Shown one piece after another: positions 38,331 through 44,968 of a DNA stretch of 64,000 nt. Every line of letters begins with the position of its first letter. Positions within the stretch are counted from its first letter, which is position 1. The DNA is taken from assembly GCA_963700065.1 (NCBI GenBank), contig CAVOWJ010000005.1:620953-684952 (forward strand). The letters are read 5' to 3'. This stretch comes from an uncultured Acidobacteriota bacterium (GTDB lineage Bacteria; Acidobacteriota; Vicinamibacteria; Vicinamibacterales; JAKQTR01). The position numbers and the translations under genes were made by a program. The notes under the pieces were generated by a model, which saw only the letters and a program-made list of their open reading frames with translations, was not told the DNA's origin and searched no databases.

Positions 38331-39728
38331 GTGGCTCCTGGCTCCAAGACCGTCCTCGTCGTCGACGACGACGAGGGGATGCGCGACACGCTGACGGCCA
38401 TCCTGCGCCGCGACTACCGCGTGCTGCGCGCGGCCACGGGCGAGATCGGGCTGTCCATCCTCGACCGCGAAACCGTGGACGTCGTGCTGCTCGACGTGCG
38501 GCTGCCGGGCATGGGCGGCTTCGAGATGCTGCAGGAGATCAGGGAGACGCAGCGCCTCGTCGAGGTCATCATGATCTCGGCCATCAACGAGGTCGAGACC
38601 GCCGTCCGCGCCATGAAGCTCGGCGCCTATCACTACATCACCAAGGACTTCGAGTACGACGCCGTGCTGTCGCTCGTCCGCAACGCGTCGGACCGCACCG
38701 ATCTCCACCGCAAGGTGATGTCGCTGAGCGCCCAGGTGGCCGACGATCGCGACCGGCCGTTCATCACGGGCTCGAGCCGCGCGATGCGCGAGATCCTCGA
38801 CCTGGTGCGCAAGGTGGCCGGCCTCGACACGACGGTGCTCATCCTCGGCGAGAGCGGCACCGGCAAGGAGCTGCTGGCCCGCATGATCCACCGCGAGTCG
38901 GCCCGCGCCGACGGCCCCTTCATGCCGGTCAACCTGGCGGCCATCCCCGCCGACCTGGTCGAGTCGGCGCTGTTCGGCCACGAGAAGGGCTCGTTCACCG
39001 GCGCGGTGCGCCAGCAGATCGGGAAGTTCGAGCTGGCCGACCGCGGCACGCTGTTCCTCGACGAGATCGGCGAGCTGAAACCCGACGTGCAGGCGAAGCT
39101 GCTGCGCGCGATCCAGGAGTCGGAAATCGAGCGGGTCGGCGGCGGCCGCCCCATCCGCGTGAACCTGCGGATCATCGCGGCCACCAACGTCGATCTCGAG
39201 AAGGCCGTGCGCGACGGGCGCTTCCGCGAGGACCTCTACTACCGGGTCAGGGTCATCCCGATGCAGGTGCCGCCGCTGCGCGAGCGGATGGAAGACCTCG
39301 ACGCGCTGGTGACCTTCTTCCTGGGCCGCTACAACACGAAGTTCAGGAAGCAGGTGCTGGGCATCGAGCCGTCCGCCATGGAGGTGCTCGGGGCCTACCC
39401 GTGGCCCGGCAACGTCCGCGAGCTCGAGAACCTGATGGAGCGCCTGGTGGCCGTCAGCGAGGGCGACTGGATCGGCGACGAGGACCTGCCCTACGAGTTC
39501 CACCTGGCGAAGCTCGTCAGGCCCGACGAGACGACCGAGGGCCTCTTCGACCGCGCCTGCGAGACCTTCGAGCGCAACTTCATCCTCAAGACGCTCGAGC
39601 ACGAGCGCTGGAACGTGACGGCCGCGGCCCGCACGCTGGGCATGCCGCTCAGCACGCTCAAGTTCAAGATGGACCGCCTCGATATCCGCCAGATCGCCCG
39701 CAAGCTCCGCCGTGCAGGCCCGGCCTGA
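38331..39728 (+). CDS. Sigma54-dependent response regulator (NtrC family: REC, AAA+, Fis HTH)
   Basis: [15 protein letters not shown]...[13 protein letters not shown]. Walker A GESGTGKE. Sigma54-contact loop [11 protein letters not shown]-terminal [26 protein letters not shown] start with GAAAGGA upstream. Confidence 0.9.
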
Positions 39729-40002
39729 CCCTTGCAGGCTGCGTGGGTCAGCGACGAATCTGAACCTTGGGGGCGTCGCAGAAACTGCAACGGGTGTCTC
39801 GCTCTGATGTGGCAGCTGCCGCCACGTGTCTCCATTGTGGACACCGACGCGCACGGGCGTCTGCTGGCAGGATGCACCCACCATTCACGAGGCGCTTTCG
39901 CGTCATAATCGCTGCGTTCAAAGGGTCTCGTCGGCACGCGGCGCGCGGCGGCCCGCAGGGTCCGGCCGCCCCGGCCGGGGCTGCAGCCCCTCCCGCCGCC
40001 GC

Positions 40003-43184: not shown

Positions 43185-44968
43185 GCACGCTGCGCGTCCG
43201 CTTCGCGCTGATGCTCGCCACGGCCGCCGTGGTGCCGCTGCTCACGTACGGGGCGGTCTCGGTGTACTCCCTGCGCGAGAGCACGCGGCGCACGGTGACG
43301 GAGGGCAACATCAACCTCGCGCGGCAGGTGGCCGAGCAGGTGCGCCGCTATGTCGCCACCAACCTGCAGATTCTCGACGCGCTCGCCGCCGATCTCGACA
43401 GCACGGGGCTCGATGCGGCGCAACAGGATCGGATTCTCAAGAACTACGTCCTCCGCTTCCCGGAGTTCCGTGAACTGACGGCGTTCGACGCCGCAGGGCG
43501 CCCCGTGGCCACCAGCCGGCTGGGCGCGCCAGGCGTCCGCATCCCCGGCGCCGACGCGGTCGACCTCTACGGCGCCCGGATGTCGCCGGTGCACGTCGAC
43601 GACGACCTCCTGCCCACGGCGCTCGTGGCCGCGCCGGTCGGCCGCGGCGGCAGGCAGGCTGGCTGGCTCGTCGGCGAGTTCAGCATCGAGGAACTGTGGC
43701 GCCTGACCGGGCGCATCCGCGTGGGCGCGTCGGGCTACGTCATGGTGGCGGACCCGCGCGGCGGCCTGCTGGCCCACGGCAATCCCGAGCAGCGCTCGAC
43801 CGTTGCGCGCGGCGAGAGCCTCGCCGGTGACCCGATCGTGAAGGCGCTGCTCGGCGCCGCGCCCGGGACGCCGCAGGTCGTCGAGCGGCAGGGCCGGGGC
43901 GGCGTGCCCGTGGTCGCGGTCGGCATCCGCGTGCCGGAACTCGGCTGGATGGTGCTGGTCGAGCAGCCCGCCCGCGAGGCGTTCGCCGCGGCGCGCCGCC
44001 ACGAGCGTGATCTCATCGCGGCCATCAGCCTCGCGCTGCTCATCATGCTGCTCGCGGGCCTGGTCTGGGGCCGGTCGCTCATCCAGCCGATCCGCGAGAT
44101 CATCCGCGGCACCGAGGCCATCGCGGACGGCCGGCTCGACGAGCGCGTCCGCGTCACGACGAAGACCGAGCTGGGGCGGCTCGGCGAAGCGTTCAACACG
44201 ATGGCGGGCCGCCTCGGCGAGCTCCAGGAAGACGTGCGGAAGCAGGAGCGCCACGCCATGTTCGGCCGCGTGGCCGCGGGCCTGGTCCACGACCTGTCGC
44301 ACCCGTTCAAGAACGTCCAGAACAACTGCCGGCTCGTCGTCAAGATGCACGACGACCCGGAATACCTCGAGCTGTTCAAGCGCACGACCGACCGCGAGTT
44401 CGCCCAGGTCAAGCGCGTGTTCGAGGATCTCCGCAACATCGCGCGGCCGATGCCGATGGAGCGCTTCCCGCTGGACCTGAACAAGCTGGTGTCGGACGTC
44501 GCGGAGTCGATGCGCGCCAACGCGTCGGCCGCGGGCCTGACCATCGACCTGGATCTCGCCGCTGACACCCTCTACGTCGAAGGCGACATGTTCGCCCTGA
44601 GCCGCGTGTGCCGCAATCTCATGATGAACGCGATCGAGGCCACCGCGCCGAACGGGCGCATCACCCTCAGCACCGCCTCCGAGAACGGGCGCGCCGTGCT
44701 GCGCGTCGCCGACACGGGCTGCGGCATCCCGGCCGACCGGCTCGACACGATGTTCGAGGACTTCAATACGACGAAGCGCCAGGGCCTCGGCCTGGGCCTG
44801 GCGATCACGAAGAAGATCGTGGATCAGTCGGAAGGGACCATTGCCGCCACGAGCGTCGTGGGCGCGGGCACGACCTTCGCCGTGTCGCTTGCACGGGCCC
44901 CAGCGCCGGCGGAGGGAATTCCCGGCGAGCCTGGCGGCGAGCCGGCCGACTGGCCGGCGCCGGTGTAG
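43181..44968 (+). CDS. Sensor histidine kinase (TM, Cache-like periplasmic domain, TM, HAMP, HisKA, HATPase)
   Basis: The ATG overlaps the SBP stop (ATGA 43181-43184). HAMP IQPIREIIRGTEAIADGRLDERV. H-box AAGLVHDLSHPFKN. N/G boxes NLMMNAIEA, VADTGCGI and GLGLGLAI. Confidence 0.9.
   Translation: MSTLRVRFALMLATAAVVPLLTYGAVSVYSLRESTRRTVTEGNINLARQVAEQVRRYVATNLQILDALAADLDSTGLDAAQQDRILKNYVLRFPEFRELTAFDAAGRPVATSRLGAPGVRIPGADAVDLYGARMSPVHVDDDLLPTALVAAPVGRGGRQAGWLVGEFSIEELWRLTGRIRVGASGYVMVADPRGGLLAHGNPEQRSTVARGESLAGDPIVKALLGAAPGTPQVVERQGRGGVPVVAVGIRVPELGWMVLVEQPAREAFAAARRHERDLIAAISLALLIMLLAGLVWGRSLIQPIREIIRGTEAIADGRLDERVRVTTKTELGRLGEAFNTMAGRLGELQEDVRKQERHAMFGRVAAGLVHDLSHPFKNVQNNCRLVVKMHDDPEYLELFKRTTDREFAQVKRVFEDLRNIARPMPMERFPLDLNKLVSDVAESMRANASAAGLTIDLDLAADTLYVEGDMFALSRVCRNLMMNAIEATAPNGRITLSTASENGRAVLRVADTGCGIPADRLDTMFEDFNTTKRQGLGLGLAITKKIVDQSEGTIAATSVVGAGTTFAVSLARAPAPAEGIPGEPGGEPADWPAPV

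Follow-up and report, generated by a model that had tools for sequence, protein, structure and literature searches.

A block of five genes was analysed at positions 38331-44968 of a 64,000-nt stretch (the window) of contig CAVOWJ010000005.1 (GCA_963700065.1), from a genome of the acidobacterial order Vicinamibacterales. All five lie on the plus strand and encode, in order, a σ54-dependent response regulator, a radical S-adenosylmethionine (rSAM)/SPASM maturase, a 30-codon open reading frame (ORF), a family-5 solute-binding protein (SBP) and a sensor histidine kinase. Judged from this sequence and its relatives, the block is most likely a conserved Vicinamibacterales module for a peptide made by ribosomes and modified after translation (RiPP), run by its own σ54 two-component system with the SBP as co-receptor. 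An earlier note on this DNA had described five co-directional genes in a tight block, and every element it listed was recovered. The maturase gene occurs once in the source genome (5.54 Mb, 15 contigs, 87.5% complete).

The maturase (40045-41488, +; about 480 aa) was assigned by matches to Pfam Radical_SAM and to NCBIfam maturase models. Its radical SAM core contains the sequence CNFACDYCYQ, a CxxxCxxC motif for the 4Fe-4S cluster, and is flanked by an N-terminal extension and a Cys-rich, SPASM-like C-terminus. In the window, the first ~81 codons and the rSAM body are read in two different frames, and omission of one G at 40288 (in TCGG; a +1 frameshift) joins both parts into a protein of 480 aa. 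The 1-base correction that the earlier note had asked for near 40287 was thereby confirmed. The extra G is missing in relatives L001, L002 and L005, and one base fewer is also found at 40287 in the public runs X1 (wetland metagenome, DNA contigs) and X20 (sediment metatranscriptome, RNA contigs). Because relatives and public-run contigs are without it, the extra G is probably an assembly error, or at most a strain-specific indel, rather than decay of the lineage. Of 80 relatives, 4 (L005, L008, L013 and L070) had a frame break in the maturase, about the rate expected from errors in metagenome-assembled genomes (MAGs), which these breaks probably are. Elsewhere in the same genome, a second rSAM protein (G000:C7:284770-285141) is weakly related, with 35% identity over 140 aa.

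The maturase was then compared with named SPASM systems, as the earlier note had proposed, and scored below the curated cut-off of every family tested. As the window gene is frame-broken, cut-off tests were run with the intact maturase of relative L001 (L001:7758-9203). The best NCBIfam models were TIGR04280 (GeoRSP), TIGR04463, CefB, FlmE/OhkG and PapB, all of them RiPP peptide maturases. The three closest curated models by score were GeoRSP, the geopeptide rSAM maturase (261 bits vs. a cut-off of 400; 247 bits for the C-terminal part of the window gene), TIGR04463 (178 vs. 525) and CefB (NF038107, Cys-every-fifth; 167 vs. 600), the precursor here having a single Cys. PapB membership was likewise rejected below the curated cut-off. 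SCIFF (TIGR03974) reached 87 bits against 425, and its six Cys in forty-five residues differ from the one Cys at most in the precursors here. The mycofactocin and PQQ pathways were also rejected, the precursor motif differing from the C-terminal V-Y of MftA and the E-x3-Y of PqqA and no MftB-F or PqqB-D pathway genes being present in the block. The earlier note had named a sulfatase-maturase assignment as an outcome that would speak against it; the anaerobic sulfatase-maturating enzyme model (TIGR03942) scored 65 bits against a cut-off of 349, compared with 170-260 bits for the peptide-maturase models, and the block contains no sulfatase.

The closest solved structure was that of SuiB (5WGG), a weak match at 57 bits. 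With RiPP maturase models and SuiB as its best matches, far from sulfatase maturases, the enzyme is predicted to modify a peptide. More than 3000 homologues were retrieved in a protein search, all acidobacterial and none with a name to anchor the family. Because the L001 enzyme falls below every curated cut-off and no model in NCBIfam fits the precursors, the maturase is, at the level of sequence, a distinct uncatalogued subfamily of RiPP rSAM/SPASM enzymes. The rSAM core and SPASM-like C-terminus claimed in the earlier note were found; as to the RRE (RiPP recognition element)-like N-terminus that it also claimed, the extension, putatively RRE-like, matched no more of the TIGR04463 model than its N-terminal portion, and weakly (E 7.6e-4).

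The 30-aa precursor gene (MKVKVLKGAKKAPSREMCPWMITVPPESGK; 41485-41577, +; predicted core C-P-W-M-I) is preceded by a Shine-Dalgarno sequence (AGGAGGAG; 41473-41480, +), and its ATG overlaps the TGA of the maturase gene (ATGA). Both features had been pointed out in the earlier note, and both are present in the sequence. In 65 of 81 loci a homologous short ORF directly follows the maturase gene, and 5 of the 16 loci in which none was detected run into a contig edge. The family combines a conserved, Lys-rich N-terminus (MKI[TQK][VI][IV]KK) with the C-terminal core C-P-W-[MLVFY]-[IV]-[DE], of which CAW and CAF variants exist. Moreover, a second, Cys-less type of precursor (..KKKG-TLRPWLVDV..) is often found upstream of the first type within the same cluster, and 2-4 tandem copies occur in loci L050, L060, L071, L074, L075 and L079. 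The arrays of L071 and L079 span 9354-9846 and 9335-9922, respectively, the latter in repeats of ~162 nt. Nonsynonymous divergence (dN) was below synonymous divergence (dS) in 9 of 10 close precursor pairs, the pattern of codons that evolve under constraint. In addition, an RNA contig of the X20 metatranscriptome covers 41392-41587, the 3' end of the maturase gene and the precursor gene, with no mismatch, a hint of transcription that measures neither level nor strand.

These data support the short ORF as the cognate precursor of the maturase, the pairing that the earlier note had suggested. The precursor matched no NCBIfam family, and by sequence the CPW-x-[IV] peptides are a new family. Because P-W(F)-x-[IV] is the only feature common to all precursors, the core is suggested to carry not a Cys thioether but a Trp-centred crosslink, which may be a triceptide-type cyclophane of three residues. 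The W/F-x-[IV] core fits the aromatic-first Ω1-X2-X3 form of such peptides, but the enzyme scores below the FxsB and YhhB cut-offs.

The response regulator (38331-39728, +) is NtrC/AtoC/ZraR-like according to its Pfam domains and its NCBIfam matches, and it precedes the maturase gene in nearly all relative loci. It comprises Response_reg (residues 8-116), Sigma54_activat (145-311), AAA_lid and HTH_8 (411-449), the last a Fis-type helix-turn-helix (HTH), and its top NCBIfam matches were AtoC, NtrC and ZraR. The phospho-Asp pocket of the receiver is conserved, and the GSFTGA loop of the σ54 AAA+ domain, by which the earlier note had recognized an NtrC-family activator, can be read directly in the sequence. 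Contig coverage of the AAA+ region (38748-39195) is very deep in a wetland metagenome, which probably reflects σ54 activators of many organisms and not copy number.

The sensor histidine kinase (43181-44968, +) was identified by dCache_1, HAMP and HATPase_c (Pfam) and by its top NCBIfam matches AtoS and ZraS, in agreement with the Cache/HAMP kinase of the earlier note. Two transmembrane segments enclose the periplasmic dCache_1 domain and are followed by HAMP, a DHp with the conserved His, and HATPase_c. Across 16 relatives, the H-box His is invariant and the ATP-binding G1 and G2 boxes are conserved. Because these kinase residues are kept together with the phospho-Asp pocket, AAA+ domain and HTH of the regulator, the pair is read as a working phosphorelay.

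A σ54 (-24/-12) promoter candidate, CGGAACGCCCCTTGCA (40003-40018, +), precedes the maturase operon, with 2 mismatches to TGGCACGNNNNTTGCW. Its GG (40004-40005, -24) and GC (40016-40017, -12) predict a transcription start at ~40028, and the ATG of the maturase (40045) lies 28 nt downstream of the candidate. In ~45 of 81 loci the region upstream of the maturase contained a motif scoring at least 10, compared with 0.6% of 200-nt stretches drawn at random from this GC-rich genome, and most relatives have a motif of the same form there (e.g., TGGAAC-N4-GTTGCT). The motif is thus strongly enriched upstream of the maturase, conserved among relatives and rare by chance, so far as sequence comparison goes. 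Alignment of the regulator-maturase intergenic regions in search of regulator-binding (upstream activating) sites was uninformative, as these regions have diverged too far. The genome encodes RpoN (Sigma54_CBD match). The characters of a σ54-dependent two-component system were therefore found together: a receiver, an AAA+ domain with a GAFTGA-type loop and an HTH, a conserved promoter motif and rpoN. With an AtoS/ZraS-like kinase also encoded in the block, they bear out the σ54 wiring and the promoter proposed in the earlier note.

The SBP (41535-43184, +; Pfam SBP_bac_5) is probably a lipoprotein, with a lipobox-like LSAFAC before Cys60 and canonical lipoboxes in several relatives. Its 5' end overlaps the precursor ORF, read in a different frame, and its TGA overlaps the ATG of the kinase at 43181 (ATGA); the second of these overlaps had been described in the earlier note. 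NCBIfam matches were NikA/GsiB/CntA-like (nickel-, glutathione- and opine-binding), all below cut-offs. Strict orthologs (E<=1e-60; 102 genomes) adjoin the maturase in every case checked, and because of this adjacency the SBP appears to be dedicated to the module.

The association of the SBP with the kinase was evaluated using a complex model of SBP residues 60-549 and kinase residues 30-280. The model gave an ipSAE of 0.63 (0.56-0.74 among runs; best of 3 controls 0.00), to be read against a mark that was reached by 58 of 80 solved complexes and 2 of 110 mismatched pairs and is only a rough calibration for custom alignments. Contact agreement was at least 93% and the pLDDT of the partners at least 83. 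The modelled interface lies within dCache, at kinase residues 87-115, 139-144 and 170-210. As a prediction, and not as evidence of binding inside cells, the model supports docking of the SBP on the periplasmic dCache domain of the kinase. The tie of SBP and kinase to the maturase drawn in the earlier note is consistent with the adjacency in all checked cases and, for docking, with the model.

A scan of GTDB species representatives with the maturase yielded 287 relatives, mostly Vicinamibacterales, 80 of which were kept as loci. Nearly all of the 80 come from Vicinamibacterales or other Acidobacteriota, and a few from misbinned MAGs labelled otherwise. Genetically tractable relatives in the order include isolates of Luteitalea and Vicinamibacter, of which Luteitalea alone is represented among the loci. 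When the window proteins were searched by tblastn, regulator, maturase, SBP and kinase were found in the same order and on the same strand in essentially every relative locus with enough context. The gene-neighbourhood comparison called for in the earlier note therefore showed co-occurrence of these genes with the maturase in nearly all loci, as well as the short ORF at the frequency given above. Among 301 sampled genomes of the order, 148 contain the maturase (E<=1e-30), patchily by family.

The block is flanked by genes for a lipoamide dehydrogenase (36196-37629, -) and a TPR protein (37637-38143, -) on one side and for HU (45056-45388, -) and QueF (45518-45883, +) on the other. Nearly all relative loci share these housekeeping flanks in synteny, and the module is therefore placed, by synteny, at a fixed chromosomal position within the order. 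Downstream of QueF lies a 982-aa ORF (45914-48862, +). One single sigma-70-like promoter match (45449-45477, -; 10/12) was seen near HU and QueF, and the scan for sigma-70 promoters and terminators gave nothing informative. Long antisense ORFs opposite real genes (e.g., 38175-39884, -) are shadow ORFs typical of GC-rich DNA and not genes.

Several characterized systems share parts of this arrangement. The nisin and subtilin clusters of Firmicutes likewise combine a RiPP with a cluster-encoded histidine kinase and response regulator (NisK/NisR and SpaK/SpaR). These pairs respond to the mature RiPP by turning the cluster on, which closes a self-inducing loop. In contrast to the nisin type, which makes LanB/C lanthipeptides under OmpR-type regulators and σA promoters in monoderms, the block encodes an rSAM/SPASM maturase, a σ54 regulator and a dCache kinase with a separate SBP co-receptor in a diderm acidobacterium; it may work like the nisin type by analogy, but is no member of it. 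Streptide and the RaS-RiPPs of streptococci offer a parallel in chemistry, as an rSAM/SPASM enzyme crosslinks a short precursor containing aromatic residues and production is under cell-cell signalling. However, their control passes through cytoplasmic Rgg receptors and imported SHP pheromones, whereas the block has a two-component system. Membership of the streptide/StrB-type Lys-Trp RaS-RiPPs was also rejected, since K-x3-W, the StrB precursor motif (KxxxW), is absent from the conserved CPW-x-[IV] core; SuiB is a distant sequence relative.

On the sensory side, a periplasmic binding protein feeds a sensor kinase in LuxP/LuxQ of Vibrio and in TorT/TorS, as modelled here for the SBP, and the dCache sensor of the block is PAS-like, like that of LuxQ. 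The block differs from LuxP/LuxQ in its family-5 (peptide/nickel-type) SBP, its predicted RiPP ligand and its σ54-type regulator, the output of LuxQ being the LuxU/LuxO phosphorelay. ZraS/ZraR and AtoS/AtoC have the same architecture, with a membrane kinase carrying a periplasmic sensor and a regulator composed of receiver, σ54 AAA+ and Fis HTH domains. However, these systems perceive Zn or acetoacetate directly and control genes of unrelated kinds, whereas the pair in the block is predicted to be dedicated to the RiPP operon and to work with an SBP co-receptor. In the literature searched, no description was found of the whole system, of the precursor family or of 'geopeptide', and the combination of an rSAM RiPP, a σ54 regulator, an SBP5 lipoprotein on a dCache kinase, a diderm host and order-wide conservation was not found there.

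On the basis of these results, we propose the following mechanism. The N-terminal extension of the maturase would bind the 30-aa precursor, and the enzyme would install a radical SAM crosslink in the conserved C-terminal core, most plausibly a three-residue cyclophane from Trp (or Phe) to the Ile/Val two residues on. At the envelope, the SBP lipoprotein would bind its ligand and dock on the dCache domain of the kinase in LuxP-LuxQ fashion. The kinase would then phosphorylate the adjacent σ54 activator, and the phosphorylated regulator would bind upstream of the -24/-12 promoter and switch on the maturase-precursor-SBP-kinase transcript. In the version that we favour, the modified peptide itself is the ligand; it would leave the producer cells and act as a self-inducing, quorum-type signal with positive feedback. 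Self-induction by the modified peptide is our best reading, unproven, to which we give a probability of roughly 45%. The wider proposition, that exported, Trp-crosslinked rSAM peptides are quorum pheromones in diderms, perceived by SBP and dCache and self-inducing through σ54 across much of the Vicinamibacterales, seems to us rather unlikely.

Several observations weigh against self-induction by the modified peptide. The loop is drawn by analogy with nisin (NisK/NisR) and not from data. Genes for an exporter, a transporter or a leader protease are missing from the conserved block, as judged by tblastn synteny and intergenic scans of the relative loci, so that the block offers the peptide no route to the periplasm or to other cells. 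About 10 loci with full context have no recognizable precursor. The docking score, a prediction with rough calibration, adds to these points, as does the SBP itself, whose best family matches bind nickel, opine or glutathione, so that a metal or metallophore, and not the RiPP, could be what it binds.

These matches bear on two alternatives. First, the SBP, kinase and regulator might sense a cue unrelated to the peptide, such as a nutrient peptide, a metal or an opine in the periplasm, to which the σ54 activator would respond by switching on RiPP production, while the peptide has another role, for example as an antimicrobial compound, as a signal exported to other cells or as a modified protein-like effector. 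The cue might be a metal or opine, given the NikA/CntA-like matches of the SBP; the glutathione-binding relatives and the lack of an exporter in the block also speak for an unrelated cue, and dCache domains often bind small molecules directly. However, an SBP with a generic input should sometimes be found apart from the maturase, whereas its strict orthologs always adjoin it. An input specific to the module therefore fits best, and an unrelated cue, although the strongest of the alternatives, is in our view rather unlikely.

Second, the RiPP might be a metal-binding or scavenging, metallophore-like peptide, with the SBP recovering the metal-peptide complex through an Opp/Nik-type permease encoded elsewhere and reporting its loaded state to the kinase. 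The SBP does resemble NikA and the staphylopine-binding CntA, and the core Cys and the conserved acidic residue beside Trp could chelate a metal. Nevertheless, a permease or ATPase stands beside the SBP in no locus, and the Cys-less precursors that coexist in many clusters argue against Cys-based chelation. The complex model speaks rather for signalling by the SBP in a complex with the kinase, with which transport would still be compatible. A scavenging role is accordingly improbable to us.

The two remaining alternatives concern the peptide and the integrity of the locus. If the small ORF were a regulatory leader or coincidental and the maturase acted on another protein or a small molecule, loci lacking a recognizable precursor and the absence of an NCBIfam family would be readily accommodated; but the peptide motif recurs over divergent loci, in tandem copies and with dN<dS, and the ORF occupies the typical RiPP position directly after the maturase with overlapping stop and start, so that there is very little to recommend this explanation. 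Decay of the locus, with a real frameshift at 40288 and a system inactive in this strain, is equally hard to credit, for although the window maturase carries the +1 shift and 4 of 80 relative loci have frame breaks too, relatives and contigs of two public runs are without the extra base, the break falls at a GG dinucleotide, where assembly errors are common, and the remaining genes of the block are all intact.

Acidobacteriota, notably Vicinamibacterales, are abundant in soils and sediments and have hardly been studied for natural products or signalling. The module described here adds an as yet uncatalogued subfamily of maturases, a new family of precursors and a dedicated, predicted σ54 circuit with an SBP co-receptor, kept across a large part of the order. 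The modification, a predicted Trp-centred crosslink set in P-W-x-[IV]-[DE], may be chemically novel. If the peptide is indeed the sensed signal, the module would represent a peptide quorum-sensing route in diderms, and the way in which RiPPs serve as signals rather than antibiotics would become testable in a tractable genetic setting.

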